Shown: positions 9,022 to 55,691 of the stretch, one piece after another
Position numbering within the stretch: the stretch's first letter is position 1
Layout of the letters: each line of letters opens with the position of its first letter
Assembly: GCA_963615055.1 (NCBI GenBank)
Contig: CAVEFO010000001.1
Span: forward strand, 48,948-112,947
DNA length: 64,000 nucleotides
Reading direction: 5' to 3'
From: Lachnospiraceae bacterium
GTDB lineage: Bacteria; Bacillota; Negativicutes; Veillonellales; Dialisteraceae
Notes under the pieces: generated by a model
What the model was told of the DNA's origin: nothing
Databases searched by the model: none
What the model saw: the letters and a program-made list of their open reading frames with translations, nothing else
Program-made: the position numbers and the translations under genes

Positions 9022-9031
9022 AATACACCCC

Positions 9032-26512: not shown

Positions 26513-26554
26513 CTGTTAGCTGTTAGTTTTTAGCTGTTAGCTGTTGGCTGTCAC
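26513..26554. repeat. heptamer tract (six units)
   Basis: CTGTTAG CTGTTAG TTTTTAG CTGTTAG CTGTTGG CTGTCAC, directly abutting the 70-nt units. Confidence 0.75.
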
Positions 26555-30463: not shown

Positions 30464-34453
<3,990 letters not shown>

Positions 34454-34480
34454 TTAGGATACCGCTCCTTTCCGGGAATG

Positions 34481-37400
34481 TCAGTCTTCCGAGGCATCCG
34501 AGCTGTCTTCGTTCGGATCGTCGGTAATGGTGTAATCAATATCTCTGTCGTCGCTTGCTTCATACGCTTCGACGGCATCATCCGCATCGAGGACATCCGC
34601 GAGAATATCCGATGCGCCTTCGCTTTCGCGTCCTTGCACTTCGTCTCTGGAAACGGAAATGGAGTCGTCGCCTTCCATGACTTCGAGAAGTTCTTTGTCA
34701 TGCGCCTGCTTTTCAGCCATGGCGCGATCCGCTTCCTTGTCGTCGCGATTGAGGCGGCGATCACTGAAAGACGTCTCAAACTCATCTTCGTCAAGTTCCT
34801 TCATGACGACTTCTTCGCCGTTTTCATTCAAGATGCGGACATCGAGGCCGATGGATTGCAATTCTTTCATGAGGACCTTGAAGGATTCCGGTACGCCCGG
34901 CGAGGGAATATTTTCGCCCTTGACAATCTTTTCGTACGCACGCACGCGACCGACGACGTCATCGGACTTCACCGTCAAAATTTCCTGCAATGTATACGCG
35001 GCGCCGTAAGCTTCCAGCGCCCAGACTTCCATTTCGCCGAAACGCTGGCCGCCGAATTGGGCTTTGCCGCCCAGAGGCTGCTGCGTGACGAGAGAGTAAG
35101 GACCCGTGGAGCGAGCGTGAATTTTATCGTCGACGAGATGGTGGAGCTTGAGCATGTATTTCCAGCCGATTGTGACGGGATTATCCAATTTTTCACCCGT
35201 GCGCCCGTCGTAGAGGACGCTCTTAGCATTGGCGGGCAAATTCGCCGCACGCAGCGTCGTCGCCAAATCTTCATCACGGCAGCCGTCAAAGACCGGCGTC
35301 GCAATGTGAATCCCGTCGCGATCCGGCTCCGGCATTCCGTATTTGTCGAAATCGTAACCGGCTTCGCGGAGACGTCTCTCCACATCGGGATCCTTTTCGC
35401 GAATTTCTTCGCCCAACGCATGGCAAGCCCAGCCGAGGTGGATTTCCAAAATCTGGCCGATATTCATACGAGACGGCACACCCAGCGGATTCAGCACCAA
35501 ATCGACGGGGCGTCCGTCCGGCGTAAACGGCATATCTTCGATCGGCATGACACGGGAGCACACGCACTTATTTCCGTGGCGGCCGGCCATTTTATCGCCT
35601 TCGTGGATTTTCCGTTTCTGCGCGATGTAGACCCGGACACTCCTGTTCACGCCGGGCGGAAGCTCGTCGCCCTCCTCTCGCGAAAAGATTTTCACATCCA
35701 CAATCTTGCCGAATTCCCCATGCGGCACACGGAGCGACGTGTCGCGCACTTCGCGTTCCTTGTCACCGAAAATGGCACGGAGAAGGCGTTCTTCCGGCGT
35801 GAGTTCCGTTTCCCCTTTCGGCGTGACCTTCCCGACCAGGATGTCGCCCGGGTGGACATCGGCACCGATTGAAATAATGCCGTTTTCATCGAGATATTTG
35901 ATCGCGTCTTCGCCGACGGACGGCAGCTGCCGCGTGATTTCTTCATTGCCCAGCTTCGTGTCGCGCGCGTCGCACTCGTATTCTTCGATATGGATAGAGG
36001 TATACAGATCCTCTTTGCAAAGACGTTCGGAAATCAAAACGGCGTCTTCGTGGTTGTAGCCTTCCCAGGAAACGAACGCCACGAGCACATTCTGCCCGAG
36101 CGCCAATTCCCCTCCGTCCGTCGCCATGCCGTCCGCCAGCGTCTGTCCCGCTTCGACGCGATCACCTTCGGAGACAATCGTGCGCTGATTGATGCACGTG
36201 CTCTGGTTCGAACGCATGAATTTCGTGAGCGGATATTCGTCCACTTCGCCTTTATCCGTGCGGACGGTGATGGACGTCCCATCGATTTTCTTGACGACGC
36301 CGGAGCGCTTGGCCAGAACGCACACGCCGGAGTCCTGCGCCGCGACAAATTCCATGCCCGTACCGACAAGCGGTGCCGTCGGACGAAGAAGCGGCACAGC
36401 CTGACGCTGCATGTTTGCCCCCATCAGCGCGCGGTTCGTGTCATCGTGTTCAAGGAAGGGAATGAGCGATGTCCCGATAGAAACGACCTGCTTCGGCGAG
36501 ACGTCCATCAGGCTGACTTCCGTCGCATCCGCTTCCACGGGATCGGCGCCGCGACGGGCCGTGACGTTTTTATTCACAAAATGATTCTCGGCATCAAGCG
36601 GTTCGGACGCCTGTGCGATAATTTTATCTTCTTCAATATCCGCCGTGACGTATTTACATTCTTCCGTGACAACCGGATTTTCCGGATCCGTCCGATCAAT
36701 CTGACGATACGGCGTCTCAATGAGCCCGTAGCGATTGATGATGGCGAAATTGGCCAGCGAAGAAATCAGGCCGATGTTCGGACCTTCCGGCGTTTCGACG
36801 GAGCACATGCGGCCGTAATGCGAATAGTGGACATCGCGGACTTCGAAACCGGCACGCTCACGGGAAAGACCGCCCGGCCCCAGAGCGGAGAGACGGCGCT
36901 TGTGCGTCAATTCCGCCAGCGGATTCGTCTGGTCCATGAACTGGGAGAGCTGCGAACTTCCGAAAAATTCTTTGATCGCGGCGACGACAGGACGGATATT
37001 CACCAGCGCTTGCGGCGTCATTTTATCCTCATCCTGCGTCGTCATCCGTTCGCGCACGACACGCTCCATGCGGGACAGCCCGATACGGAATTGATTCTGC
37101 AAAAGTTCCCCCACACAGCGCACGCGACGGTTTCCCAAATGGTCGATATCATCCGTTTCCCCGATACCCTGCATGAGATTCAAAAGATAACCGATATTGG
37201 CAATCATGTCCTCCGGCTTCAGCGTCCGGTCGGAATCCGGCAAATTCGCATCATTGCAGACGATCTTCACTTCCGTGCCTTCGCTGTTTTCCATCAGCTC
37301 TGAAACCATGCCCGGATGCGCAAAGACCCCACTCTTTTCCAATTTTGCGATTGCTTCGGCATCGACCAAAACGCCCGCTTCCAAAATGACTTCGCCCGTT

Positions 37401-38290
37401 TCCGTATTCACAATCGGTTCCGCCGTCACAAGATCGCGAATCCGATTCTTCCAGCCGAGCTTCTTGCCCGCTTTGTAGCGGCCGACCTTCGCCAAATCAT
37501 AGCGATGCGGATCATAGAAAAGATTGTGCAAGAGCGTCGTCGCCGATTCCACCGTCGGCGGTTCGCCCGGACGGAGTTTCTTGTAAATCTCGATCAGCGC
37601 TTCTTCGCGATTGTGCGTCGGATCCTTTTCGAGCGTCCGCTGAATATGCACATCCCGGCCGAACAAATCAAGGATTTCATCATTTGTTTCCCAGCCGAGC
37701 GCACGCACCAAAATCGTCGCCGGCATCTTGCGGTTCCGATCGATACGAATAGAGACCGTCCCATTGGAATCCGTTTCCAATTCGATCCACGCGCCGCGAT
37801 TCGGGATTACCTGCCCGCTGTAAATATATTTCCCGAGGCTATCCTGCTCACGCGAAAAATACACGCCCGGCGAACGGACGAGCTGCGAGACGACGACACG
37901 TTCCGCGCCGTTGATGACGAAAGTCCCCGTCGATGTCATGATGGGAAAATCGCCCATGAAAAGATCCGGATTTTCCTTGATTTCTCCCGTTTCATGATTG
38001 ACGAGACGCGCACACACGCGAAGCGGTGCACTGTACGTCATCGCCTTCGCGCGACATTCATCAATCGTCGCGTCCGGCGCTTCAAAACGGTAATCCAAGA
38101 AATACAGCCCCCACTTGTGGCCGCTGTCTTCGATGGGAGAAATATCATCCAATACATCCCGCAGGCCTTCCTGTTGGAACCATTCGTAGGATTTCGTCTG
38201 CAGGTCGAGCAAATGCGGCATTTTCATGACGTCAATCGCTCTTGCGTAGGTATACCGTTTACGCGTACCCACCTTTTCGGGTCTGAACAT
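34481..38290 (-). CDS. rpoB: DNA-directed RNA polymerase subunit beta
   Basis: 1269 aa, RpoB-like throughout, with a long acidic C-terminal tail. Confidence 0.95.
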
Positions 38291-38667
38291 CCTTTTTCCT
38301 CATCCTTTCTTTTGTCAATACGGGAAACAAGGGAAACGGCCCACCATCATCAAAACAATGCAGGCAACGCTTCCCCGCCATGCGAGCGCCAAGAAATTCC
38401 CTCTTGACATTCTCGCCGAAATCGACTTTTCGCGAAAATTTCCGCTTTTTAGCCGCAAACATCTGAATTTTATTCATCGTGAGTTAATATGATATCACAA
38501 CTGAAAGAAAAAAGACAATCTTTTTCATCATTTTCGCTCCAAAATCACCATATCAAAATTTTCTTTCACCGATTATTAAAAAATTCTGGCATATAGAAAT
38601 TTTCTTTACCCCTGCAGATTTTTTTTATAACATGCGAAGATCTGCTATTTGTCACATCACGTAAAAA

Positions 38668-38803
38668 GTTAGCAATTAGTAGTGAGTAGTGAGCAGTTCA
38701 GGTGTCGCCTTCGGCGACGATTTTTATAAAATCTCGCGAAGCGCGCACCTGAACTGCTAATTGCTAACTGCTAATTGCTAACTGCTAATTGCTAATTGCT
38801 AAC
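38668..38803. repeat. heptamer-armed palindromic element
   Basis: Left arm: four AG-type heptamers ending CAGTTCAGGTG. Right arm: CACCTGAACTG followed by seven TGCTAA(T/C) heptamers at 38755-38803. The centre holds two mini-hairpins (GTCGCC-TTCG-GCGAC and CGCG-AAG-CGCG). Confidence 0.7.
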
Positions 38804-38827
38804 TTTCTCTATGCGCATCCATCATTT

Positions 38828-40096
38828 TCAGCTCTCAAGACGCATCCTCAGCTTCGCATTCCAAATCGCCTCATACAGATACGCCGCACCGCGCAGGCCG
38901 CAGAGGGGCGTGTCCGCGAAATGGACTTCATCCGCCGAGGGGAGCGCGATGTGGACAGAGGCAAATTGTTTTCCCATGCGACGAAGCTGCTGTGTCTCGT
39001 GCGACGACGACAGCACAAGGCCGCCCTGCCAATTCTCATAATCTTTCTTCATCGCGGCGTCGTCTGGCCCGACTCTCCGAATCATATCCGCTGCCGGTGT
39101 CGTCCGCTCGCTTGCCGCTTGCAAATGCACCACCAATTTGGCCGTATCCGCCCATTCGCTGCGGACGGCTTCCGCAATCCCGATCGCTTCGGACGGCGAT
39201 GCGGAGATGAAGATTTCATCAAACCATAGCGGTCCCCAGAGCGATTCCAGATTGTTCCCTTTGCGGAGTAAAAATTCTTTCACGCTTTTCGCTTTTTCCG
39301 TCACACTCTCCGGCAACGGGACGCCGAGCAACTCACAGATTTTTGCCAGCCACGCCATCGTCCCCTCCGTCCCGTACGGAAGACCGACAGACAGAAACGG
39401 GATGCCAAAATCTTTTTCCATTTGCCTTGCAAGCGAGAGCCCCAATTCATCTCGCACGACGACATTCAAAGCGGCGCGCGGCGCGTCCATGATGTCTTCC
39501 CACGAGCTCCCCGCCCCCGGCATCGAGAGAACGGTGATCCCAGCCTCCGCCAAAAGTGAGGAAATCTCCGCCGCGTCTTCGCGCCCTTTCATATGTACCG
39601 TCGAAAGTCCCAGCACATTGACGCTCATTTCTTTTGTCGCGCCCGGTTTCATTTCTTTTTCGATGCGAAGCGATGCCGCCGCAAAGCCCGCCTCGAAACT
39701 CCCCAGAAGCCCGCCGCCGTCCATCGCGTACACCGGCCACGGTAAATCGGCGCGATCCGCGATCCCCTGCATATCGTCGCCCACAAGGCTCACGCTGCAA
39801 TTCGTTTCCGCAAAGACCCGCGCCGGTTTCGCATTTTGACGGATGAAATCGAAACCGGCCAAGAGATCGTCTTCCGTCCCGTAGACCAGCGCCTGCGGAC
39901 TCGGCTGCGTGCAATGGAAACGATGCGCCGCCATCGGATTTTCGTTGTCCACATATTTCATCGCGTAGAAATAGCACCACAGCGGCCCATTGATGAGAGT
40001 GAAACTCTCCGGAATCGAATCGAAAAACGCCGCCGCACCCGTCAGCGCGCACGTGCCCCCGTGCCGACACGCCGCCTCCCATTCACACCGTGACAT
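38828..40096 (-). CDS. nitrogenase component-1-like protein, NifK/NifN-like subunit
   Basis: Start at [14 protein letters not shown]. Two Cys spaced 25 residues apart (C-ALTG..GPLW-C) and a NCSVSLVGDD motif, as in NifK cluster ligands. Overlaps the D-like gene by 14 nt. Confidence 0.7.
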   Translation of the reverse strand: MSRCEWEAACRHGGTCALTGAAAFFDSIPESFTLINGPLWCYFYAMKYVDNENPMAAHRFHCTQPSPQALVYGTEDDLLAGFDFIRQNAKPARVFAETNCSVSLVGDDMQGIADRADLPWPVYAMDGGGLLGSFEAGFAAASLRIEKEMKPGATKEMSVNVLGLSTVHMKGREDAAEISSLLAEAGITVLSMPGAGSSWEDIMDAPRAALNVVVRDELGLSLARQMEKDFGIPFLSVGLPYGTEGTMAWLAKICELLGVPLPESVTEKAKSVKEFLLRKGNNLESLWGPLWFDEIFISASPSEAIGIAEAVRSEWADTAKLVVHLQAASERTTPAADMIRRVGPDDAAMKKDYENWQGGLVLSSSHETQQLRRMGKQFASVHIALPSADEVHFADTPLCGLRGAAYLYEAIWNAKLRMRLES

Positions 40097-41378
40097 ACGC
40101 GACGCCCCCTTTCTCACCGTAGCGGCAAAGCAGGCGATACACCGCCCGCATCTGCGCGATTTCCCCTTCCGTCCCGACGAGCGGCACCATGGGGATGAAA
40201 AGCTGCCGCGTCTTCGTATTGAAGACCTCATTTGTCGTCAAAAAGACATCCGCACCGTCAATGACCGCCTGCCCTGCGTCCGCCTCATAGATCGGCACGT
40301 CGCCGAATGCGTAAATTTTCTCTCGGATCGCCGCTTTCTCCTCTTCGGGAAGATTTCCGAAAAAGACGACGCCCGCCGTTTCCATTTCCAGCCGCGATAC
40401 GAGAGCGAGCGTTTCCGCCGGATTGTACCAGCGAAGCGCACGCCCCGTGCCAATCACGACTTTTTTGCCCCGCGTCACCGGAAGAAAACCGGCCGCCGCC
40501 TCCGAGACGCGCGCCTCTTCGGCCGCCAAGACCGCCGCGCCCGTCTCCGGCTCGCCCACTTTCTCCGCGAGCGCCGAAATCCACGCTTTTGTCGCGTCCC
40601 AGCCGACCGGATACACATCGCCCAGCGCCCGGACGCCGTATTCTGTTTCCAATTTTTCCGCGACCCGGAGCATCGCGCCCGCCTGCCCCGCCACACCCAA
40701 AATGACGGAAAGCGCCACGGACGGAATCTCCGACCATTCGGCAAACGGCACATAGCCCGGAAACTGATACAGCACGCGCAAGCCGAAACAGGACAAAAGC
40801 CGCGTCACTTCGCGCACATATTGGCCCTCCGGCCCCATTTGATCGCCTAGGAGCAGCACCGTATTCGGCTCCGTTTCCGCCGGTTTCACAAAACGAGACA
40901 AAATAACGTCCACCGTCTCATAATACCCTTTTCCGTATTCGCCGCCCAAAAATCCGGCAAACGGCATCGCAATGACGGGAATCCCATACATTTCCTCGGC
41001 CCGCTCCGCTGCCTCTTCCACATCGTCGCCGATCACGCCGGCCACGCACGACGTCACGATGAAAAGGCAACGCGGCGCATACGCCTCCATCACATAGGAA
41101 ATGCAATCCTCCAGCCGGGAAATGCCGCCGAAAATGCTGTCCTTTTCACGAAGATGCGAGGAAACGAGCGGGATGCCCGTCCGATTTTCACGCCCGCCGT
41201 CCGCCGCGACACGAAACCCCGAACCCATGTCCATCGTCTGCGCCACATGCGCGCACCCCAAAGGACTGTGAAAGATGACGACGCAACCCGTGCAGAAAGC
41301 CAGTGCCCGGTACACGCCCACCATCGGGCAACTCGACGATTTCTCCTGTTTCAAAAGCCATTTCGTATCAAGTGCCAT
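40083..41378 (-). CDS. nitrogenase component-1-like protein, NifD/NifE-like subunit
   Basis: 431 aa. Cys pair spaced 25 residues apart (SC-PMVG..HSPLG-C) and [11 protein letters not shown]. No Cys where the FeMo-cofactor Cys would align. Confidence 0.7.
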
Positions 41379-42180
41379 ACGCCCCTACCAACATTTCCAA
41401 TTCTTCAAACGAAAGCGGCATCGGGACGGAAAATTCCGTATTCGTCCAGATCGTCTCCGCCAGCTCGCGATACACATCCGCCTGCGCGGAGTCCGGCGCA
41501 TACTCCAAGACCGTCTGCTTGTGATTTTCCGCCACATTCACAATCCGATCCCGCGGGATGAAAGCCACGAGCCGCGTCTGCAATTTTCGTGAAAACTCCT
41601 CCAAAAGCTCGCGTTCGCCCGGCACGTTTCGACTGTTTCCGATGATTCCCGCCAGCCGCACGCGCCCGCGCTCCGCAAAGCGCCGAATCCCCTTCGCAAT
41701 ATTGTTCGCCGCATAGAGTGACATCAGCTCACCGGAAGACACGATGTAAATCTCCTCGGCGTATCCCTCGCGAATCGGCATCGCAAAGCCGCCGCACACC
41801 ACGTCGCCCAGCACGTCGTAGAGCGTCACGTCCGTCTCGGGCAGTGCCTTCAACTTCTCCAAAAGCTGCAGCGCCACGATGATCCCGCGCCCCGCACACC
41901 CCACGCCCGGCTCCGGTCCCCCCGCCTCGACGCAAGTAATCCCGTGGAAACCCGTGTGCACAAGATCGGCCGCCGCGATCTCCTCCATCTCCGAGCGCCG
42001 CACACAATCCAGCACCGTTTCCCTGCAAATATGCCCCAAGAGCAGCCGCGTCGAATCATTCTTCGGATCGCACCCGATTTGGCACACCCGCCGCCCCGAA
42101 AGCGCAAGCGCCGCCGACACATTCGAAGCCGTCGTCGACTTCCCGATCCCGCCCTTCCCGTAAAACGCAATCTTTTTCAT
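41368..42180 (-). CDS. NifH-like ATP-dependent reductase (iron protein family)
   Basis: 270 aa. P-loop GKGGIGKS. Both [4Fe-4S] Cys contexts are present ([17 protein letters not shown] and [10 protein letters not shown]). Confidence 0.85.
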
Positions 42181-42224
42181 GCCGTCACTTCCTTTTTTAG
42201 AAACAAATTTTCTCTTCTCATTTT

Positions 42225-42233
42225 ATTATAGCA
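42225..42233 (-). promoter_or_regulatory. candidate extended -10 element for the nif-like operon
   Basis: On the minus strand: TGCTATAAT, about 45 nt upstream of the ATG. No good -35. Confidence 0.35.
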
Positions 42234-42595
42234 AAAAGGGAAAACGCTTAAAAAGGCTTGATAAGCTTTCTCAGCACGAAAAGAATGCATGACAGAGGAT
42301 GCATAAAAGAATCGGCGCATCAAGCCTTTGCCGGGTGGAAAGCACGGATAGCGGTAATCGGATAGCGGATAACCGTCCTCCGTGGGCTGTATAACCGTTT
42401 ACAGCATGGACGATGTTGAAACGCAACACAGCACCCACATCAAGCTTTTTCAAGCCGTCCCCCTAAGGCAACCCCGATAGCAGACGCAATGGGACACAAC
42501 TCAAATCTCAAGCTCTTTCAAACTTTCAGTTCTATGTAAAACTCGGTAAACATTTAACGAATAACGAACAAATAGCACAACAAGAACTTTTATCA

Positions 42596-42625
42596 TTGCG
42601 ACAAAGCGGCCGCTTATTGTATAAT
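42596..42625 (+). promoter_or_regulatory. candidate tRNA-Leu promoter
   Basis: TTGCGA, 18 nt, TATAAT. A perfect 16-bp palindrome ATCGCGATATCGCGAT follows at 42632-42647. Confidence 0.55.
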
Positions 42626-42657
42626 ACCCCCATCGCGATATCGCGATCAAAATACTT

Positions 42658-42742
42658 GCGAGCGTGGCGAAACTGGCAGACGCGCCGGATTTAGGATCCG
42701 GTACCTTGCGGTATGGGGGTTCGAGTCCCTTCGCTCGCACCA
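42658..42742 (+). tRNA. tRNA-Leu (anticodon TAG)
   Basis: 85 nt. Acceptor stem GCGAGCG/CGCTCGC. Anticodon stem CCGGA/TCCGG with loop TTTAGGA. Long variable arm. T-arm GGGGGTTCGAGTCCCTT. CCA is encoded. Closely resembles the Bacillus tRNA-Leu(UAG) as I recall it. Confidence 0.9.
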
Positions 42743-42748
42743 AAAAAA

Positions 42749-42780
42749 GCTTCGGAACGCAATCCGAAGCTTTTTCTTTT
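42749..42780 (+). terminator. rho-independent terminator after tRNA-Leu
   Basis: GCTTCGGA/TCCGAAGC stem followed by TTTTTCTTTT. Confidence 0.75.
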
Positions 42781-42875
42781 CAAGCTCATCAAGCCTTTTC
42801 AAACCTCATCAAGCCAACAATAAAAGAGCTGCGAGAAAATGTCACATCATTTCCTCGCAACTCTTTTTCGTTTCC

Positions 42876-43607
42876 TTACTCTTCCTCAGGATACTCCGCA
42901 TTCGTGTAAACTTCCTGCACGTCATCCATTTCTTCGAGCTCATCCGTGAGGCGCTGCATGACTTTGGCAGCGTCTCCGGAGAGGGCGACGGTCGTGTCCG
43001 GGACCATGCCGAGTTCGCTGGCCGTGACGGCAATGCCGGCTTGCTCCAATGCGTCGGAGACCGTCATAAATTCATCCGGGCCGGTCGTGATCTCGTAATT
43101 GTCGTCATTGACGGCGACATCTTCCGCACCCGCATCGAGCGCAATCATCATAAGGGTATCTTCGTCGGCCGCGTCCTTGGCGACGATGATGGAGCCCTTT
43201 TTCTTAAACATCCAGGAAACGCAGCCCGTCGCGCCGAGGTTTCCGCCGTGATGGGTGAAGGCATGACGGATGTCCGCCGCCATGCGGTTTCGATTGTCTG
43301 TGCTGGCTTCGACGATAATCGCCGTACCGGAGGGGCCGTAGCCTTCGTACGTGACTTCATCGAGCCCCGCGCCGCCCGCACCGCCGACGCCTTTGGCGAT
43401 GGCACGCTGAATATTGTCTTTCGGGACATTATTCTGGCGCGCTTTCATGAGCGCGAGCTTGAGGCGCATGTTTCCGACGGGATCGCCGCCGCCCATGCGA
43501 GCCGCAATGGTGATTTCTTTTGAAATTTTCGTGGTGATTTTCGCGCGGATGGCGTCCATTTTGCCTTTCGTGCGCTTGATATTTTCCCACTTGGAATGTC
43601 CGGACAT
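42876..43607 (-). CDS. yebC: YebC/PmpR-family transcriptional regulator
   Basis: 243 aa beginning MSGHSKWENIKRTKG, the family signature. Confidence 0.9.
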   Translation of the reverse strand: MSGHSKWENIKRTKGKMDAIRAKITTKISKEITIAARMGGGDPVGNMRLKLALMKARQNNVPKDNIQRAIAKGVGGAGGAGLDEVTYEGYGPSGTAIIVEASTDNRNRMAADIRHAFTHHGGNLGATGCVSWMFKKKGSIIVAKDAADEDTLMMIALDAGAEDVAVNDDNYEITTGPDEFMTVSDALEQAGIAVTASELGMVPDTTVALSGDAAKVMQRLTDELEEMDDVQEVYTNAEYPEEE

Positions 43608-44189
43608 TTAATCCTCCTTCCTCTCCCACCACGCTTCTCCGAGCAGGCGATCGAGAATAATGGAAACGGCGCTCCTGACGCAGAGGTGATTGTAGCTGCC
43701 GCAACCGTAAATGGGTTCCAATATGTAATCGAATTGTTTCATCATTTCCTTGGTCATGCCGTAGCCGGTGCCGAAAAGAAGCAGGACGGGGTCGTCTCCT
43801 TCGGCGATTTTCCGGCGCATGGCCGCGTAGCTGACGGTATTCGGATACACGCGTGCATCGGTCGTGACGATGAGCGGTTTCCTCCCCGTTTCCGTTTCGA
43901 TTTGGGAAACGGCTTCCGCAAGGTCAGAAACAAGCACGGTCGACTCGAAAGCTTCGCGGCGATTCGCATTGTAGCGGCTGCCGGCGCCTGTCTTCCAGTG
44001 CTCCATGATGAGCGCGGCCATATGCCGCTGGGATTCGATGGGATGAATGATGAAATACGAAGAAACGTCATAGGTCTTAGCGCTCCTCGCAATATCGTGA
44101 ATATCGTAATTGGTGAGCGCCGTGGTGATGACGTCCATATGTTTGTTGTAAATGGGGTAATGAATCAGCCCCACATAGCATTTCGCCAT
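43608..44189 (-). CDS. putative SPOUT-type RNA methyltransferase-like protein
   Basis: Start moved to MAKCYVGLIHYPIYNKHMDV; the ORF-track N-terminal extension runs through repeat DNA. The trmD-linked small protein resembles the SAM-dependent RNA methyltransferase family often found beside trmD. Family assignment is from memory. Confidence 0.5.
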   Translation of the reverse strand: MAKCYVGLIHYPIYNKHMDVITTALTNYDIHDIARSAKTYDVSSYFIIHPIESQRHMAALIMEHWKTGAGSRYNANRREAFESTVLVSDLAEAVSQIETETGRKPLIVTTDARVYPNTVSYAAMRRKIAEGDDPVLLLFGTGYGMTKEMMKQFDYILEPIYGCGSYNHLCVRSAVSIILDRLLGEAWWERKED

Positions 44190-44210
44190 AGCGAGTCTCT
44201 TTTCAAAAAA

Positions 44211-44550
44211 CAGGGGCGGGACTTTTTCTTTTCTTCTCTTTTGCGGCATTTGAGATGGAAGCTTTTGCATGATAGGGATGAGGAGCGGACTTTTTCCTTT
44301 ACTCCCCTTTGCGGCATTTGCGAGGAAAGCTTTTGCAAGATAGGGGTGAGGAGCGAAGCTTTTTCTTTGCATGACCTTTGTGGCATAGATAATGGGCAAC
44401 TGACTGCTGATAGAGATGAGAAAACGCCTCATCCCTATCAACACTTTATTTTTCAGCTCAAACGCCGCAAAAGAGAAACGACTACCAAGTCGAGCCTCCC
44501 ATCTCTACCGGCAGGAAGTTTTCACCTCAAACGCCACAAAAGAATAGAAC
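44211..44550. repeat. mosaic intergenic repeat, locus C
   Basis: Three forward and about two inverted units of about 68-70 nt. Forward units at 44211-44278, 44279-44346 and 44347-44416. Central hairpin GATAGAGATGAG/CTCATCCCTATC at 44409-44439. Inverted units run to about 44550. Confidence 0.7.
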
Positions 44551-44554
44551 AGAT

Positions 44555-45298
44555 TTAGTCCGGCCCCTCTTCTTCAATCTCTGCCATCAGCTTTTTATCC
44601 TCTTCCGACGGATGAAATTGTTTCATCAGATCCGGACGGCATCGCATGGTGCGGCGGAGGGATTCTTTGCGCCTCCATCCGGCGATTTTCGCATGGTCGC
44701 CGGAAAGTAATATTTCCGGGACATCCCAATCGCGATATTTTGCCGGTTTCGTGTATTGCGGGCCTTCCAGAAGCGGCTCGGAAAAGGAATCGCACGCCGC
44801 GCTTGCCGCATCACCCAGGACGCCCGGCACCATGCGCGCCACGGCGTCAATCACGACCATCGCGCCCAACTCGCCGCCCGTCAGGACATAATCGCCGATG
44901 GAAATGAGCTCGTCAGCCAAATGGTCTTCGACGCGAGCATCCACACCTTCGTAATGACCGCAAAGAAAGACGATGTGATCGTAATCGCGATACAGCGTTT
45001 TCGCTTTTTCCTGCGTAAACGGCACACCGACGGGTGAAAGGAGGATCACGCGACTCCGCGGCGTTTTTTCCGGAAGCACCGATTCACATGCCTCAAAGAG
45101 CGGGCCGCATTGCATGAGCATCCCCGCGCCGCCGCCGCAAAGCGTGTCATCGACATGACCGTGGCGATTGTGCGCAAAATCTCTGGGATTCGTGACGGCG
45201 AGCTCCAAAAGCCCCGCCGCCCGGGCGCGCCCGATGATGCTCTGCGCGTAAAACGCTTCGATGAATTCCGGAAAGAGGGAAATGACATCGATCTTCAT
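44555..45298 (-). CDS. trmD: tRNA (guanine37-N1)-methyltransferase
   Basis: 247 aa beginning MKIDVISLFPEF. TrmD-like throughout. Confidence 0.9.
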   Translation of the reverse strand: MKIDVISLFPEFIEAFYAQSIIGRARAAGLLELAVTNPRDFAHNRHGHVDDTLCGGGAGMLMQCGPLFEACESVLPEKTPRSRVILLSPVGVPFTQEKAKTLYRDYDHIVFLCGHYEGVDARVEDHLADELISIGDYVLTGGELGAMVVIDAVARMVPGVLGDAASAACDSFSEPLLEGPQYTKPAKYRDWDVPEILLSGDHAKIAGWRRKESLRRTMRCRPDLMKQFHPSEEDKKLMAEIEEEGPD

Positions 45299-45310
45299 CG
45301 CGCTCCCCCG

Positions 45311-45880
45311 TCAATCTTCCCATTCCAAAAGATGCACCGTCATGCGCCGCGCCGTAAGATCCACCGAAAGAATGCAATCCGGGATCGCCGGGATACAGAT
45401 TTCCTTTCCATCCTTCGCCGCCACATAGACGTCATTTGCCCCCGTTTCGATGATTTCCGAAAGCGTCCCAATTTCCGTCCCGTCCTCTTCGACAATCGAA
45501 AGCCCGAGGAGCTCGAAATAGTAATACTCCCCGGCCGGCAAACGCGGAAATTCATCTCGCGGCAGGAAACAAATTTGTCCGACGAGCGCTTCGGCGCCGT
45601 TTCTGTCGTCGCAGCCTTTGAAATGCACGCGATACACATTCTTGTGAGGCTTGGCCAAGAGGACTTCGTGCGGCGCATCTCCCAAAAAGAGACGCCGCAC
45701 CTTGCCCAAGATCTCCGGCCGCTCGACAGACGGCAATACACGCAAATCACCCCGCACACCATGCGGGGCAACGATTTTGCCGACTTCGATGAAATTGTCA
45801 GAGTCTGTCTTATTCACGGAATGCGACAATCTTTCCGTCTTCCACCAAGATTTCTCCGCCACGGATGTCATTGAGATCAT
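45311..45880 (-). CDS. rimM: 16S rRNA processing protein RimM
   Basis: Contains the VGKIVAPHGVRGDLRV motif and a PRC-barrel C-terminus. Start is uncertain: ATG 45880 overlaps ylqD by 71 nt, and GTG 45817 is the alternative. Confidence 0.8.
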   Translation of the reverse strand: MISMTSVAEKSWWKTERLSHSVNKTDSDNFIEVGKIVAPHGVRGDLRVLPSVERPEILGKVRRLFLGDAPHEVLLAKPHKNVYRVHFKGCDDRNGAEALVGQICFLPRDEFPRLPAGEYYYFELLGLSIVEEDGTEIGTLSEIIETGANDVYVAAKDGKEICIPAIPDCILSVDLTARRMTVHLLEWED

Positions 45881-46217
45881 CCCCGACGTGGACCGTCACA
45901 AGGCGATTGATCGGACCGCGCGGCAGCTCAGCGCCGATGACGAGCCCGTTCAACTGCTCTTTGTCGTTGAGAATCTTTTCCTTGGCTTCGAGAAACTGCG
46001 CTTTCTGCGCTTCAATCTGCGCGCGAAGCTGGGCCACGCCGGCCATATTGATTTTGGCCTGCTCGGAGAGTTTCGCGTTTCCTTCAAATTCGAGCTGCGC
46101 CAAGTCATGCTCGATGGCATCGAGATTTTGCTGCATCTCGGCCAAAAGTCTGGTCTTCAGTGCTTCCGTCAGCTTCGATTTCAGCAAGACGGGCACAAGC
46201 AGGGTCATTTCTTCCAT
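45810..46217 (-). CDS. ylqD: YlqD-family protein
   Basis: 135 aa, in the conserved position between khpA and rimM. Confidence 0.7.
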   Translation of the reverse strand: MEEMTLLVPVLLKSKLTEALKTRLLAEMQQNLDAIEHDLAQLEFEGNAKLSEQAKINMAGVAQLRAQIEAQKAQFLEAKEKILNDKEQLNGLVIGAELPRGPINRLVTVHVGDDLNDIRGGEILVEDGKIVAFRE

Positions 46218-46248
46218 GATGTACCTTCTTTCGGACGCGCGGCGCGCA

Positions 46249-46476
46249 TCACATAATGTCGACGGCGACTCTCCGGTCCTGCTTCAAGGCGCCTGCTTTC
46301 ACGACGGCGCGAATCGCATTGGCGATCCGGCCTTGGCGGCCAATGACTTTCCCGATATCCTCAGGGGCGACCCGGACTTGATAAATCTCCAGATTTCCCT
46401 TTTGGACGACGGTCACCGTCACGGCCTCCGGATTTCTCACTAAGGATTTCACAATCCAGCAAACGAGCTCCTCCAT
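46249..46476 (-). CDS. khpA: KH-domain RNA-binding protein
   Basis: Start at MEELVCWIVKSLV with a GGAGGG Shine-Dalgarno. Contains the GKVIGRQGRIANAIR KH motif. Confidence 0.85.
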   Translation of the reverse strand: MEELVCWIVKSLVRNPEAVTVTVVQKGNLEIYQVRVAPEDIGKVIGRQGRIANAIRAVVKAGALKQDRRVAVDIM

Positions 46477-46490
46477 AGTCTGTCCCTCCA

Positions 46491-46754
46491 TTATTTCTTG
46501 GATTCGGCAAACTTGGCCAGGATGCCGTTTTTGCGAAGGATGGAACGAACGGTATCGGTCGGCTGTGCACCTTTCTGCAACCAGCCGATGATCTTTTCGT
46601 CATCCAACTTCACCGGCGCGTCCGCCTTGGTCGGATCATACCAACCGACGGTGTCCACCGGAGCGCCGCTTCTGGCCGCGCGTGCGTCGATGACGACCAC
46701 ACGGTAGAACGGTGCCTTTTTCGCGCCCATACGGGTCAAACGGATTTTAAGCAT
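46491..46754 (-). CDS. rpsP: 30S ribosomal protein S16
   Basis: 87 aa beginning [21 protein letters not shown]. Confidence 0.95.
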
Positions 46755-46781
46755 ATTTTCACCTCCTTGAAATATGATGAA

Positions 46782-48128
46782 TCAAAATTTAGGAAACCCG
46801 GGAATTGAGAGTCCCCGAGGCATTTTACTGTTTTTCATCTTTTTCATCTGCTTGCGCATCTCCGTGAATTGCTTCATGAGCCGATTCACTTCCTGCACAT
46901 GCGTCCCGGATCCGGCCGCGATACGTTTGCGACGACTGCCGTTTAATATGTCCGGATTCCGACGCTCGGCGGCTGTCATCGATTGGATGATCGCCTCGAT
47001 ATGCTTCATTTCCTTGCTGTCGAAATCTATATCTTTCAGTTGTTCCTTATATTTGCCCATCCCGGGAATCATCCCGAGAATATTTTGCATCGAGCCCAGT
47101 TTCTTCACCTGGCGCATCTGTTTCAGGAAATCATCGAGTGTAAATTCGCCTTTCTTCAGCCTTTGGACCGCGTCCTCCATGCTGTCCTGATCGAGCGTCC
47201 GCTGCGCCTGCTCAAAGAGCGATTGCAAATCACCCAGATCGAGAATACGCCCCGCCATGCGATCCGGATAGAAATCCTCCAGCCCGCCGTCGAGCTTCTC
47301 CGATGTGCCGATCAGCTTGATCGGTTTCCCTGTGACACTCTTGATCGAAAGCGCCGCGCCGCCTCTGGCATCACCGTCCATTTTCGTCAAGATCGTCCCG
47401 TCGATGCCAAGACTCTCATCGAAAGCTTTCGCCGTCGTCACCGCATCCTGCCCCGTCATGGAATCCAGCACGAGCAAAATCTCATGCGGCCGGACCGCGC
47501 CCTTGATATCGCGGAGCTCTTGCATCAGCTTCTCATCAATCGTGAGACGCCCCGCCGTATCGATGAGGAGAATATCTTGGTTGTACGTCTTCGCGCTCTG
47601 AATCGCATCCTTTGCAATCTGCACCGGATCCGTACTCCCCGGAACTTTATAAACAGGCACCCCCGTCTGCTCACCCAACACTTCGAGCTGCGAGACGGCC
47701 GCCGGACGATACACGTCACACGCGACCAAGAGCGGGCGATGCCCCTTCTTTTTCAGCATCAGTGCGAGCTTCCCCGCCGTCGTCGTTTTCCCGGCGCCCT
47801 GCAAGCCCACCAGCATCAAAATCGTCGTCCCGGAAGGAGAAATCGTAATCTTACTCTGCGTCCCGCCAAGGAGCGTCGTCAGCTCATCGCGGACAATCTT
47901 AATCACCGTCTGATCTGGCTTGAGACTCCCGAAGACCTCTTCGCCGATTGCTTTTTCACGGACCTCTCCGATGAAATCCTTGGCGACCTTGAAATTTACA
48001 TCCGCTTCCAAAAGCGCACGCCGCACCTCGCGGAGCGCCCCGTCGATATCACTCTCCGAAAGCTTCCCCTTGCCGCGCAAATCTTTGAACGCACTCTGCA
48101 GCTTATCGCCCAGACTTTCAAACGCCAT
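46782..48128 (-). CDS. ffh: signal recognition particle protein
   Basis: Start at MAFESLGDKLQSAF. NG domain (GLQGAGKTTT) and a Met-rich M domain. Confidence 0.95.
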   Translation of the reverse strand: MAFESLGDKLQSAFKDLRGKGKLSESDIDGALREVRRALLEADVNFKVAKDFIGEVREKAIGEEVFGSLKPDQTVIKIVRDELTTLLGGTQSKITISPSGTTILMLVGLQGAGKTTTAGKLALMLKKKGHRPLLVACDVYRPAAVSQLEVLGEQTGVPVYKVPGSTDPVQIAKDAIQSAKTYNQDILLIDTAGRLTIDEKLMQELRDIKGAVRPHEILLVLDSMTGQDAVTTAKAFDESLGIDGTILTKMDGDARGGAALSIKSVTGKPIKLIGTSEKLDGGLEDFYPDRMAGRILDLGDLQSLFEQAQRTLDQDSMEDAVQRLKKGEFTLDDFLKQMRQVKKLGSMQNILGMIPGMGKYKEQLKDIDFDSKEMKHIEAIIQSMTAAERRNPDILNGSRRKRIAAGSGTHVQEVNRLMKQFTEMRKQMKKMKNSKMPRGLSIPGFPKF

Positions 48129-48168
48129 GATTTCACCCCTTCCCAAAGAAATATATTTACAGGAAACG

Positions 48169-48495
48169 TCAGATCACATCCATCGTTTCCAAAATGTTTC
48201 GGGCCTCATCCCGCGAGCCTTCCGGCACAAGCGCCAAGAGCGCCGGTGCTTCTTGCTCCCGGACTTTCCTAAGCGCCGCCAAATGCAACACCGATTCATA
48301 CAAAAGCAACTGCTCCTCGCCGCGCGCCATCGCATCATGCACCGCCTGCCGCGAGATCCGGAAACAATCCGCGATCTCGGAAAGCGTCAGATTCTCATTG
48401 TAATACAAATCCAGACACTCGCGCCGCCGCGCCGTCAAAAGCGCTCCGTAGCAATCGAGCAACTCACTTTTTTCGACAATCTTTTCCAATGACAT
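48169..48495 (-). CDS. ylxM: YlxM/UPF0122 putative HTH protein
   Basis: Start at MSLEKIVEKSELLDCYGALLT. Sigma-70 region-4-like HTH. Lies upstream of ffh. Confidence 0.8.
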   Translation of the reverse strand: MSLEKIVEKSELLDCYGALLTARRRECLDLYYNENLTLSEIADCFRISRQAVHDAMARGEEQLLLYESVLHLAALRKVREQEAPALLALVPEGSRDEARNILETMDVI

Positions 48496-48514
48496 ACCAT
48501 CACCAACGGAAACG

Positions 48515-48543
48515 ATTATAAAGGAAACGGTTTTGCTTGTCAA
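48515..48543 (-). promoter_or_regulatory. consensus promoter of the ylxM-ffh operon
   Basis: On the minus strand: TTGACA, 17 nt, TATAAT. Both hexamers match consensus exactly. Confidence 0.6.
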
Positions 48544-48872
48544 GAGATTTCTCTTTACACGGCGGACAGTAAGGAGACGCTCCACCTTTTGGCCGCAAAG
48601 GAATCAAGACGGCAGATAGAGCGTGCGCAATGCTTTTGATTTCACACGCAAAACTGTTGTTAATTGTCAGCCATTAACTGCCAGCTCAAGCAGCGTCGCC
48701 TCCGGCAGCCATAATATGCGGCCGAAGGCCGCCACCAATCAACCCCTCTTTTGAAGGCGACCTTCCGGTGGACGGTTGCCGGTGCCCCATAGGGGCGGGA
48801 GATAAATAACACGATGAAAAAACTTCTCGTCAAAAAATTTCCGCTTTCCCTCAATTCTCAATTCCGCTTTTC

Positions 48873-49456: not shown

Positions 49457-49558
49457 GTTTTACCACCATCAGAAATTACATCGCTCTCAAACCGCACGCG
49501 GGAGTTATTGCCTCCGGCTCTTGTTTTACCACTATCAGAAATTACATCGCTCTCAAAC
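49457..49558 (-). CRISPR. minimal type II-A CRISPR array (2 repeats, 1 spacer)
   Basis: 36-nt repeats at 49457-49492 and 49523-49558, differing at one position. crRNA sense: GTTTGAGAGCGATGTAATTTCTGAT(A/G)GTGGTAAAAC. One 30-nt spacer at 49493-49522, written on the plus strand as CGCACGCGGGAGTTATTGCCTCCGGCTCTT. Confidence 0.85.
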
Positions 49559-49644
49559 CTCAAATTGCATAATTATGCAGCCGGGTCGTCCGCAAGCGGT
49601 ACCGCCTTCACAAGGGCAGCGCAATTTCCGACAGGGTTTCTTCA
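49559..49644 (-). promoter_or_regulatory. CRISPR leader
   Basis: 86 nt between the csn2 stop and the first repeat. On the minus strand it ends in ATTTGAG directly against the repeat. Confidence 0.6.
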
Positions 49645-50316
49645 TCAAAAAATCTGGCATAGGTCCCGATCGATGACGAAGAGTTCCTCCTGCTTCATTA
49701 TATCATGACAAATCCCTTCCAGCAGGAAAAATGAAAAATTCTCTTCCGCCGCATTTCGATACCATTCTTCCCGGACGTCCGGCGGCAGAAAATCTCGGAA
49801 ATGATTGAAACAGAAGCAGGTATCACCGCAAAGCGAGACCCAGCTTTTCATGAATGTCAGCATTCTCTCGGCCAAGCTTTGCCCACCCGTATCGATTTGG
49901 ATATGAAGCGCTTTGAAAATATCCGTCACATCGATATCCGGCTCATAATCAAGTGGCAAGGAATGATCAAATATCACCGTCTCCGCATAACGAATAATGT
50001 TTTGGCAAAGACTTGCCGTTTCGACCGAATGTATCTCATCATGAGCGATATCTCGCAATTTCTTGTACAGCACGGTCAAAAGTTTCCGGTCATTGGGATT
50101 GAGTTCTGCGGGGCTGCCAATCAACAAAAATGATTTTTTCATGTCTAGTGCTTTGCCGTTTTTCGTCAAAACAAAGCGCCCGCCTCCCATCTCGGCCGCT
50201 TCCTGCAGCGCCAAAAATGTCTCATACAGACAGATCTCGTTTTCCACAGAGAGAATCGGCACGCGTCCTTCTCCCGGAGCCAACGTAAACTCCCACTCAG
50301 GCAACAGCAATTTCAT
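49645..50316 (-). CDS. csn2: CRISPR-associated protein Csn2 (type II-A)
   Basis: 223 aa, last cas gene before the leader. Layout matches the S. pyogenes-type short Csn2. Confidence 0.8.
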   Translation of the reverse strand: MKLLLPEWEFTLAPGEGRVPILSVENEICLYETFLALQEAAEMGGGRFVLTKNGKALDMKKSFLLIGSPAELNPNDRKLLTVLYKKLRDIAHDEIHSVETASLCQNIIRYAETVIFDHSLPLDYEPDIDVTDIFKALHIQIDTGGQSLAERMLTFMKSWVSLCGDTCFCFNHFRDFLPPDVREEWYRNAAEENFSFFLLEGICHDIMKQEELFVIDRDLCQIF

Positions 50317-50633
50317 AAAATCACCAGCCTTTCTTCACTGTCGATAATTTCACTTTGCAGCTGTCCCAGGATGAGCTCCATCTCGCCGTATTGTTTCTCC
50401 GTGATGACCAAAGCCTGGATCAAGCCATGCCGCGGCCGGATGCCTTTCACGTATTTGATAATGCTGCGGGAAGCCGCCGGCGTCAGCGCAATCTTGGTAT
50501 AGACGGATTCCTGCATCATGATAAAGCCTTTCGTGATAAGGCCTTTTCGGAAATTGCGATAGGCGCGCCGCTCCTCCGAAGTGTCCGTCGGCAGGTCAAA
50601 AAACACCATGACGCGCATAAATCTACCACTCAT
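50313..50633 (-). CDS. cas2: CRISPR-associated endoribonuclease Cas2
   Basis: 106 aa beginning MRVMVFFDLPTDT. Overlaps both cas1 and csn2. Confidence 0.9.
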   Translation of the reverse strand: MSGRFMRVMVFFDLPTDTSEERRAYRNFRKGLITKGFIMMQESVYTKIALTPAASRSIIKYVKGIRPRHGLIQALVITEKQYGEMELILGQLQSEIIDSEERLVIL

Positions 50634-51504
50634 CGGCTCGTTCGTAAAACATAATCTCCTCCGGCTGTCCTTCTTCCATCGCCCGAAAGACGCTGTGCAC
50701 GTAAGTCCCGATCGCTTGAGAAACCAAGACTTTTTTCCCGCCCTGCCGCACAGTGCGATTCAGCACATCGACGAGTTTTCGTTTGTGAATTTCGGTAAAT
50801 TCTTCAGCGCAAAGCACCATCGCCACACAATCGATGAGCGGACGGAAAGGCTCCATCAGATCGCTACCGAGATTGAAAGGGTTATATTGATTGTCGTGCT
50901 TAAGCCCGAGCTGGGTGAGGTAGCCGGCGGCGACGATTTCCCGATTGAAAAAGGCCAAAAGAACGGCATAACCGTAATCCAAAGCCCCATTCAATGCGCA
51001 GGGATCCCGCCTGGTAAACAGTTTCCCGCGAAGCGCATTGAAATAGACTTTTGCAGCCGGCCCTTCTCGATTGGTCTCGTCGCCCGGCAAGACATCTTGT
51101 TCATAATCGGCAAGCATGGCCGCTTCCGCCAAATGTCCCCATTCTTCCAAGACGAGACGCTGCTGACGAATTTTTTCACGAATGATGGATTGCCAGACTT
51201 GGGCCTTCCGCTCTTCTTTCCATCGAATCTGCGCGCGGATACGCCCACTGGATTCTCCGCTGCCGGTATAGGAAACGAGCTCGGAGGCCGGATTGTGCTT
51301 TTCGTTGCAAAAGATGACTTTGATTTTGCGGCGGGCGCACTCATTGAGCCAGACGCCGGTCATGGCGACGGCCGGCGTCTCCAGGATGACGGTCTGCACA
51401 TCATCCAGAAAGATTCGCTTTGTCTCTTGGCCGCGCACGACCATATAGCCCATCGCATACTCAAGCTTGGCTCTATCGGTAATAATGACCGTCCGCCAGC
51501 CCAT
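50623..51504 (-). CDS. cas1: CRISPR-associated endonuclease Cas1 (type II)
   Basis: 293 aa beginning MGWRTVIITDRAKL. Conserved acidic and His residues sit in the C-terminal domain. 1-nt TAATG overlap with the cas9 stop. Confidence 0.9.
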   Translation of the reverse strand: MGWRTVIITDRAKLEYAMGYMVVRGQETKRIFLDDVQTVILETPAVAMTGVWLNECARRKIKVIFCNEKHNPASELVSYTGSGESSGRIRAQIRWKEERKAQVWQSIIREKIRQQRLVLEEWGHLAEAAMLADYEQDVLPGDETNREGPAAKVYFNALRGKLFTRRDPCALNGALDYGYAVLLAFFNREIVAAGYLTQLGLKHDNQYNPFNLGSDLMEPFRPLIDCVAMVLCAEEFTEIHKRKLVDVLNRTVRQGGKKVLVSQAIGTYVHSVFRAMEEGQPEEIMFYERADEW

Positions 51505-52316: not shown

Positions 52317-52322
52317 TGGATT

Positions 52323-55655: not shown

Positions 55656-55657
55656 GA

Positions 55658-55685: not shown

Positions 55686-55691
55686 ACACAT

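Follow-up and report, generated by a model that had tools for sequence, protein, structure and literature searches.

What does a nitrogenase-like enzyme reduce when its genes lie beside rpoB and not among genes of cofactor maturation? This question is raised by a three-gene system, nflHDK, in a 64,000-nucleotide (nt) stretch of contig CAVEFO010000001.1 (assembly GCA_963615055.1, positions 48,948 to 112,947), which is referred to here as the window. On the minus strand, nflH (41368-42180) encodes a NifH-like ATPase/reductase, nflD (40083-41378) a NifD-like catalytic subunit and nflK (38828-40096) a NifK-like subunit. An earlier note, made from the letters alone, read the trio as a nitrogenase-like enzyme that does not fix N2 and belongs to no characterised clade, and family cutoffs, ligand residues and tree results agree with it. 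Judged by its sequence, nflHDK is a nitrogenase-like H/D/K system that is predicted to be unable to act as a nitrogenase and that falls outside every characterised clade. The B12-type context of the trio in relatives points to a corrinoid or tetrapyrrole as the substrate. We propose that NflHDK is probably an ATP-driven low-potential reductase whose substrate is a corrinoid of B12 salvage or biosynthesis.

The trio encodes a NifH-like ATPase together with two paralogous Oxidored_nitro subunits and thereby belongs to the nitrogenase superfamily. NflH (270 residues) matches Pfam PF00142 (Fer4_NifH) at 4.7e-109, and NflD (431 residues) and NflK (422 residues) match PF00148 (Oxidored_nitro) at 1.9e-54 and 7e-48, respectively. 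However, none of the three proteins reaches an NCBIfam equivalog cutoff for Nif, Vnf, Anf, NifEN, DPOR, COR or CfbCD. NflH scores 384.5 bits with the nifH model TIGR01287 (cutoff 394), 376 with CfbC (402), 234 with BchL (345) and 189 with BchX (331). NflD scores best with nifE (105.6 bits, cutoff 505) and obtains 80 bits with nifD (654) and 49.5 with BchN (420); the CfbD model gives 44 bits against a cutoff of 268 and matches over 66 residues only. NflK obtains 79.5 bits with nifE (505) and 59 with BchB (490). The nifK model yields 21-39 bits against a cutoff of 427, and the BchZ model 34.5 bits against a cutoff of 529. Among solved structures, NflD is closest to MarD (9fmg_A; 1.1e-26, 97 bits, 31% identity) and NflK to BchB (3aet_B; 1.9e-15), and NflH shares 57% identity with the Fe protein 8oie_D. 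The AlphaFold2 model of NflD (predicted local distance difference test score 82) adopts the NifD/MarD/NifE fold with a template modelling score of about 0.6. Because this score is alike for NifD, MarD and NifE in a Foldseek search against the PDB, the fold does not discriminate among them. A search of 1.84 billion representatives returned only 42 proteins at E<=1e-30. In a neighbour-joining tree of unnamed representatives, the NflD clade of about 430 residues stands apart from Mar-like proteins of about 480-515 residues. The nearest sister proteins (about 415-435 residues) reach no curated family cutoff, and thus the neighbours in the tree do not help.

The metal-site residues separate electron delivery from cofactor binding. 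NflH carries the P-loop GKGGIGKS (G8-S15) and the cluster cysteines C95 and C129, which are invariant among 74 homologues, as expected for the NifH-like ATPase described from the letters. C17, C42 and C111 of NflD are invariant in a 14-sequence alignment, and C16, C41 and C100 of NflK are invariant among 81 homologues, as is NflK C10. The first three NflD cysteines and C16, C41 and C100 of NflK are spaced like NifD C62/C88/C154 and NifK C70/C95/C153. Given this NifD/NifK spacing, the full six-cysteine site is present at the subunit interface, three cysteines per subunit, as in the P-cluster carriers nitrogenase and Mar. The earlier note had listed a cysteine pair 25 positions apart and a third cysteine in a C-x3-(I/V)GDD motif in both subunits; the pair and the third cysteine are indeed kept in NflD and NflK, but the motif is C-x4-(I/V)GDD (NCSVSLVGDD in NflK). 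The interface centre is probably of the P-cluster type on six cysteines, and sequence does not distinguish between an [8Fe-7S] and a [4Fe-4S] cluster. The catalytic cofactor site is different. No cysteine is invariant between NflD residues 112 and 417 in the 14-sequence alignment, H37 and H44 are the only invariant histidines, and equivalents of Cys275 and His442 are absent. A230 of NflD aligns with the MarD cluster cysteine and the NifD cofactor cysteine position, in line with the cysteine-free ligand stretch noted before. A ligand for the iron-molybdenum cofactor (FeMo-co) or for an L-cluster is therefore absent from NflD.

Each characterised family was considered as a home for the trio and rejected. 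N2 fixation (Nif/Vnf/Anf, Groups I-III) is rejected on the absent cofactor ligands and on NifD and NifK scores far below the cutoffs; nifB or nifEN was found neither in the 64-kb window nor in the related loci examined. Mar is rejected on the 31% identity to MarD, the replacement of the cluster cysteine by A230, the lack of an adjacent NifB-like gene in the loci examined and the separate clade. DPOR and COR (Group V) are rejected since the BchL, BchN, BchB, BchX and BchZ cutoffs are all missed. CfbCD (Group IV-B) is rejected because a K subunit is present and the scores stay under the TIGR03282 and NF033200 cutoffs. Isr (Group IV-F) is set apart by the published description of IsrD, which keeps one of the three interface cysteines, with Arg and Pro/Ser at the others, is always accompanied by IsrB, with the radical SAM gene isrB upstream, and has a sulfonate context (PMC11423573); NflD keeps all three cysteines and has no IsrB gene beside it. 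No sulfonate- or sulfur-metabolism gene was identified among the neighbours in the loci examined. Group VI is likewise set apart by its description, in which NflH is about 40% identical to NifH and at most four of six interface cysteines occur (PMC13474568), against 57% Fe-protein identity and six of six cysteines here.

If the trio belongs to none of these families, what is its substrate? Neighbourhoods were mined across Negativicutes. NflD homologues occur in Dialister, Phascolarctobacterium, Succiniclasticum, other Acidaminococcaceae, Selenomonadales, Sporomusa, Succinispira and Schwartzia, all Negativicutes, and the single Clostridia member found is Pelotomaculum propionicicum. The survey covered 92 loci (numbered with the prefix L below), obtained by tblastn with proteins from the first annotated loci, and 46 of them, mostly from Negativicutes, have enough flanking sequence. 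Within 10 kb, CobN is encoded in 28 of these 46 loci, a radical S-adenosylmethionine (SAM) gene in 29, a Peripla_BP_2 binding protein in 28 and a FecCD permease in 20; CbiK occurs in five and rpoB in two (the window and L007). The canonical order is a divergent MerR-type regulator, nflH, nflD, nflK, Peripla_BP_2, a FecCD/BtuC-like permease, CobN, radical SAM/SPASM, ChlI-like and ChlD-like genes, followed in some loci by ExbBD. The binding protein resembles BtuF, the permease resembles BtuC, and the ATPases are of the ChlI/ChlD kind. The cluster CobN reaches the cobaltochelatase cutoff (TIGR02257, 909 bits against 822). The radical SAM/SPASM protein belongs to no defined family and shows weak likeness to peptide maturases, AhbC, AhbD and NirJ.

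Single loci add further genes of corrinoid metabolism. In Pelotomaculum (L091), the cob(I)yrinic acid a,c-diamide adenosyltransferase CobA lies directly 5' of nflH (NF004637, 186.9 bits against a cutoff of 185), and in a metagenomic locus (L094) CbiZ stands at the cluster end. The Succinispira operon (L092) opens with two TonB-dependent receptors, whose best match is the B12 receptor at a score below its cutoff; ChlI and ChlD precede nflH there, and ExbBD is present. A Dialister subclade with 64-74% NflD identity to the window has, instead of the CobN set, a signal-peptide-bearing CbiK and a binding protein divergent from nflH; this CbiK resembles the periplasmic Desulfovibrio vulgaris chelatase 2xvx and the haem-binding protein FetB. 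In L079 and L027, the genes that precede the clusters serve glycolysis and ABC transport and are outside the system. The label orphan, given to the trio from the letters, suits the window copy and those nearest to it (86-96% NflD identity) but fails for the family, which mostly lies in CobN/ChlID/radical SAM/BtuFC-like clusters.

Regulation points in the same direction. Cobalamin riboswitches (Rfam RF00174, gathering score) occur at five nfl loci and directly 5' of nflH in three, namely at 8905-9079 in Phascolarctobacterium L054 (nflH at 9202), at 8839-9009 in L094 (nflH at 9202) and at 1-75 in L093, where the contig end cuts the element (nflH at 149). In Succinispira, a riboswitch at 1054-1208 heads the operon that contains nflHDK and a second one precedes exbBD; in Pelotomaculum, the riboswitch (12684-12874) lies between nflK and the transporter-CobN genes. 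Rfam detects no cobalamin riboswitch at 19 other loci, many of which have the MerR-type regulator. A sequence-only nhmmer profile of five riboswitches recovered only its training sequences and missed those of L093 and L094, and it is therefore unusable for counting riboswitches. No other single argument for a link to B12 is as strong as this riboswitch control, since genes behind cobalamin riboswitches serve B12 biosynthesis, B12 transport or B12-independent isozymes. In Phascolarctobacterium (L005, L052-L089), a MerR-type regulator of about 283-286 residues is encoded about 100-200 nt 5' of nflH on the opposite strand, in the position held by the riboswitch in L054. The MerR-type protein is a candidate corrinoid- or metal-responsive regulator.

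How would such an enzyme work? By homology, the NflH dimer would hold one [4Fe-4S] cluster and use ATP hydrolysis to drive low-potential electrons into NflD2K2, whose core would carry the P-cluster-type centre at the D/K interface. Because NflD lacks a FeMo-co or L-cluster ligand, the interface cluster would pass its electrons directly to an organic substrate, as happens in DPOR and CfbCD, and this substrate would occupy the space that the cofactor fills in nitrogenase. Judged by the context of the relatives, it would be a corrinoid, or else a tetrapyrrole close to one, of a B12-regulated salvage or biosynthesis module. This module would comprise TonB-dependent and BtuF/BtuC-like import, a CobN-ChlI-ChlD cobaltochelatase and a radical SAM/SPASM enzyme, with CobA or CbiZ in single loci. 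Of the two substrate classes that the earlier note had named for studied members, tetrapyrrole and organosulfur, the context favours the former. We speculate, with considerable doubt, that the step may be the ATP-driven reduction of Co(II) to Co(I) in cobyrinic acid a,c-diamide, cobinamide or a cobamide before adenosylation, which would make NflHDK an anaerobic counterpart of CobR. Such a step fits because CobA is adjacent and CbiZ needs adenosylated substrates. Alternatively, the macrocycle itself may be reduced. The energy metabolism of Phascolarctobacterium, Succiniclasticum, Succinispira, Schwartzia, Dialister succinatiphilus and Pelotomaculum propionicicum rests on succinate and propionate conversions, for which adenosylcobalamin-dependent methylmalonyl-CoA mutase is needed. 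In the window lineage, the trio has moved beside rpoB, away from its partners, and has a promoter-like region of its own and no riboswitch.

Several observations weigh against a corrinoid reductase. The proposed substrate and step are read solely from neighbourhood and regulation. The window holds neither a partner gene nor a riboswitch in its 64 kb, and the transfer of function to it rests on 41-74% NflD identity to loci with B12 context. In 11 of the 46 flanked loci, which have neither CobN nor CbiK nor rpoB, no partner lies within 10 kb. Most Dialister and Phascolarctobacterium loci have the MerR-type regulator and not a riboswitch, and a relaxed Pfam search detects no B12-binding or other sensor domain in its C-terminal ~170 residues. 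The further invariant cysteines C92, C104 and C418 of NflD and C10 of NflK have no explanation in this mechanism. To our knowledge, a one-electron metal-centred reduction is without precedent in the nitrogenase superfamily. Finally, a late-type cobaltochelatase in a strict anaerobe is a puzzle, as it is for operon-2 of Dehalobacter (PMC4285132).

Could the macrocycle be a haem? In that case, the chelatase would be a dechelatase like HmuS/BtuS of Bacteroidota that takes the iron out of imported haem, and NflHDK would reduce the porphyrin ring or its vinyls. CobN-family proteins of gut anaerobes can strip haem iron (PMC12583661, PMC6460266), the binding proteins also match the haem binder IsdE weakly, the exported CbiK of the Dialister subclade is like 2xvx and FetB, and DPOR and COR act on porphyrin-type rings. 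However, the cluster CobN matches Mycobacterium tuberculosis CobN (703 bits) better than ChlH (541) or the haem dechelatase HmuS (403; partial coverage only) and passes the CobN equivalog cutoff, and the cobalamin riboswitches, CobA and CbiZ in the clusters indicate corrinoids. We regard haem or porphyrin processing as unlikely. The same gene set also resembles a biosynthetic route to a new metallated tetrapyrrole cofactor, parallel to F430 (chelatase and CfbCD) or chlorophyll (BchHID, BchE and BchLNB). The combination of a chelatase, a radical SAM enzyme and a nitrogenase-like reductase mirrors those pathways, the radical SAM/SPASM protein is weakly like AhbC, AhbD and NirJ, and the CfbC score of NflH almost equals its NifH score. 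However, the clusters examined contain no amidotransferase, Mur-ligase-like or methyltransferase genes, and the import genes, CbiZ, CobA and B12 riboswitches better suit the salvage of an existing corrinoid. A new cofactor, for which CobN-ChlID would insert the metal, the radical SAM enzyme would tailor side chains and NflHDK would reduce the ring, is quite improbable in our estimate. Sulfur chemistry fares worst. MarD is the closest solved relative of NflD, Mar is probably also present in Negativicutes and Group IV contexts are usually sulfur-related (PMC13474568), which would suit a Mar/Isr-type organosulfur C-S reductase for sulfur assimilation. Yet NflD shares 31% identity with MarD, branches in a separate clade and has alanine for the cluster cysteine; there is no neighbouring gene for MarB, NifB or IsrB; three interface cysteines occur in NflD against one in IsrD (PMC11423573); and no sulfur-metabolism gene was identified among the neighbours examined. 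Such a reductase is disfavoured and highly improbable.

Even if the family serves B12 metabolism, the window copy, which lies outside the B12 module, may catalyse a different reduction or be a relic that is no longer needed. The 64 kb contain no partner or riboswitch, relocation to the rpoB side occurs only in the closest lineage (L007, L010 and L011), and HDK or DK genes stand alone in other lineages, too. The three relatives share 96% (L007), 92% (L010) and 86% (L011) NflD identity with the window, and all have the trio upstream of rpoB. Since this position is common to the closest relatives, the detachment from the partners is a lineage-specific rearrangement. However, the window nflHDK is under purifying selection. 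Against the three relatives, the ratios of nonsynonymous to synonymous substitution are 0.07-0.29 for nflH, 0.16-0.20 for nflD and 0.08-0.13 for nflK, compared with 0.02-0.05 for rpoB. The reading frames are intact, the coupling is conserved and every family-invariant residue is retained. The codon composition is native, with a third-position G+C content of 0.68-0.75 that is like that of the neighbouring core genes (cas9, 0.55), so that recent horizontal acquisition of the trio is rejected. Partner genes may lie elsewhere in the genome. The window trio is still under selection as a working enzyme, and a changed or dispensable function has, in our judgement, a low probability.

The gene order of the trio conforms to the first description as three coupled genes. 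Direct reading of the sequence confirms the coordinates and gives an 11-nt overlap between nflH and nflD, ATGGCACTTGA, and a 14-nt overlap between nflD and nflK, ATGTCACGGTGTGA; both stop/start overlaps recur in relatives. The nflK frame is open up to 40231, and the start at 40096 (MSRCEW) is common to L007, L010 and L011. As described, the trio lies upstream of rpoB (34481-38290), which begins 537 nt past the nflK stop and is followed by rpoC. In the 5' region of nflH (42181-42300, minus strand), sequence reading finds a TATAAT at 42230-42225 and an AGGAAG ribosome-binding site at 42192-42187; a consensus promoter scan finds no promoter-like site 5' of nflH on the nfl strand. Rfam finds no cobalamin riboswitch in the whole window at the gathering score or between 38000 and 43000 at E<=1. 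The nflK-rpoB spacer (38291-38827, minus strand) contains a GC hairpin at 38703-38719, whose T-run is on the plus strand only, a 7-nt tandem repeat at 38752-38802 and promoter-like sites at 38556-38489. The repeat is a (TGCTAAT)n heptanucleotide directly 3' of the nflK stop, and the TGCTAAT unit appears again at 22337-22363; another heptanucleotide tandem repeat, (TAGCTGT)n, occupies 26510-26551.

The wider setting is that of core genes. On the 5' side of the trio lie tRNA-Leu (42658-42742, plus strand), yebC, trmD, rimM, rpsP, ffh and ylxM, and no operon partner is encoded 5' of nflH in the window. rpoB-rpoC (30464-38290) lacks the customary rplK/A/J/L in front and is instead preceded by the nfl trio, tRNA-Leu, yebC and the trmD-rimM-rpsP-ffh-ylxM block (42181-48585). 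In L007, the relative with 96% NflD identity, the gene 5' of the trio is valS, and the region has therefore been rearranged more than once. Family scans of 41 open reading frames (ORFs) and tblastn with partner proteins find no nifB/E/N/V, bch/chl, cfb, cobN or cbiK in the 64-kb window, which bears out the reported lack of Nif, chlorophyll and F430 genes. The sole radical SAM gene of the window (12376-13821) encodes a SCIFF peptide maturase (TIGR03974, 606 bits). A 56-residue cysteine-rich SCIFF precursor, which contains CSECQTSCQSACKTSCTVGNLVC, is encoded directly upstream of it at 13882-14052 on the minus strand.

Two features of the surveyed loci concern how the trio is distributed. In L047, L050, L051 and L058 (Succiniclasticum and other rumen Acidaminococcaceae) and in L090 (Sporomusa termitida), nflD-nflK occurs with no nflH detected within 10 kb, and the Fe protein of these loci may be encoded elsewhere or shared. 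In Sporomusa termitida, two URO-D-family genes lie close to nflDK, and a cobalamin riboswitch is 4 kb away. In addition, L010-L014, L017, L019, L023, L056, L066, L068 and L073 lie on contigs labelled Acutalibacteraceae, Oscillospiraceae, Ruminococcus bromii, Agathobacter, Segatella copri or Bacteroidaceae. The nfl genes on these 'cleanbin' contigs of metagenome-assembled genomes are Dialister- or Phascolarctobacterium-like, and rpoB of L010 and L011 is 96% identical to that of the window. These bins are probably mislabelled or contaminated.

The remainder of the window holds features of its own. A Type II-A CRISPR-Cas locus at 49457-55706 has a lower G+C content (0.46-0.48). Its cas9 appears to be divided into two ORFs, 52323-55706 (model positions 1-817 of 1070) and 51504-52316 (840-1069), and this split suggests a frameshift or pseudogene. 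cas1 lies at 50623-51504 and csn2 at 49645-50316, and the CRISPR array consists of two repeats (40 nt matched) at 49457-49496 and 49523-49562, 66 nt from start to start, with one spacer. Two arrays of a 68-70-nt tandem repeat, at 26320-26501 and 44219-44368, share a mean pairwise column identity of 77% and the core TTTGCAAGATAGGGATGAGG, and they look like an intergenic repeat family. The second array follows on from trmD, ahead of the neighbouring gene, and extends into the 5' portion of the ORF at 43608-44444; the actual start of this ORF probably lies further inside. Towards the end of the window are genes for a LarA-family nickel-pincer-cofactor 2-hydroxyacid racemase (LarAH10, 603 bits; 60054-61406) and a CopA-type copper P-type ATPase (56088-58382), both unrelated to the nfl trio.

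What would a corrinoid-reducing NflHDK mean? The hosts of the trio include cultured gut and rumen bacteria, namely Phascolarctobacterium succinatutens YIT 12067, Dialister succinatiphilus YIT 11850, Succiniclasticum ruminis DSM 9236 and Succinispira mobilis. A 2026 review assigns verified or proposed functions to Groups IV-A, IV-B, IV-C and IV-F, limits context clues to sulfur for Group IV and tetrapyrrole for Group VI, and names the function of uncharacterised nitrogenase-like clades as one of the main challenges, with culturable or genetically tractable hosts lacking (PMC13474568). A 'pseudo-nifH' study mentions nifD-like reads of Phascolarctobacterium and Selenomonas and gives no functional analysis of them (PMC8597730). 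In our full-text literature search, outside of which subscription literature lies, no report of a link between a nitrogenase-like enzyme and B12 or corrinoids, or of this clade, was found. The present clade, with its NifH/CfbC-like Fe protein, has a sharp recurring context of cobalamin riboswitches, CobN-ChlID, corrinoid import, CobA and CbiZ. We tentatively suggest that NflHDK could possibly be the first nitrogenase-like enzyme of B12 metabolism, an ATP-driven corrinoid reductase that works with CobN-ChlID and radical SAM proteins in the oxygen-independent remetallation, repair or activation of imported corrinoids in strict anaerobes that rely on adenosylcobalamin for their energy metabolism. 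If true, this function would account for an uncharacterised Nfl clade and for the long-puzzling occurrence of late-type CobN chelatases among the B12-regulated genes of anaerobes. Together with this context, the cultured hosts make the function of the clade, the late-type cobaltochelatases in anaerobes and an O2-free low-potential corrinoid reduction testable. B12 and its analogues are contested in the gut, and a new chemistry for salvaging them would matter for microbiome ecology and propionate production.

NflHDK can be compared with several known nitrogenase-like systems. MarHDK (Group IV-C; PDB 9fmg and 9d9u) is likewise an H/D/K three-gene system with six P-cluster cysteines, and MarD is both the best solved sequence match and among the best folds for NflD. 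However, MarD is longer (519 against 431 residues, 31% identity) and has a catalytic-cluster cysteine that is alanine in NflD, and the nfl loci, in a separate tree clade, lack marB/nifB and a sulfur context. DPOR (BchL/ChlL with BchNB/ChlNB) and COR reduce tetrapyrroles in an ATP-driven reaction directly from the Fe-S cluster at the interface and need no complex cofactor. They are paired with a class I chelatase (BchHID) in chlorophyll synthesis and include the best solved match of NflK, BchB. In contrast to these enzymes, which use three cysteines and one aspartate, NflDK has six cysteines; NflH scores far higher with NifH (384 bits) and CfbC (376) than with BchL (234) or BchX (189); and the nfl hosts are non-phototrophic, with a B12 and not a chlorophyll context. 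CfbCD is a nitrogenase-like reductase that follows a chelatase in its pathway and has a metallated, amidated tetrapyrrole as its substrate, and its CfbC is matched by NflH at 376 bits. CfbD, however, is a homodimer without a K subunit, and the nfl hosts are bacteria, not methanogens.

Two further systems are comparable through their genomic context. For the Group VI Nfl of Elusimicrobia (Meheust et al. 2020, 10.1101/765248), tetrapyrrole reduction was also proposed from context (radical SAM genes), and NifB and FeMo-co ligands are absent as in the present system. Its NflH, however, is ~40% identical to NifH and branches beside Group V, and no more than four of the six cysteines occur (PMC13474568). 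Operon-2 of Dehalobacter restrictus (BtuFCD-CbiZ-CobN-Mg-chelatase; PMC4285132) unites, as the nfl clusters do, corrinoid import and salvage with a CobN/ChlID chelatase behind a cobalamin riboswitch in an anaerobic Firmicute. No nfl genes were described for operon-2 (PMC4285132), whereas the nfl clusters add nflHDK and a radical SAM/SPASM gene to this set.

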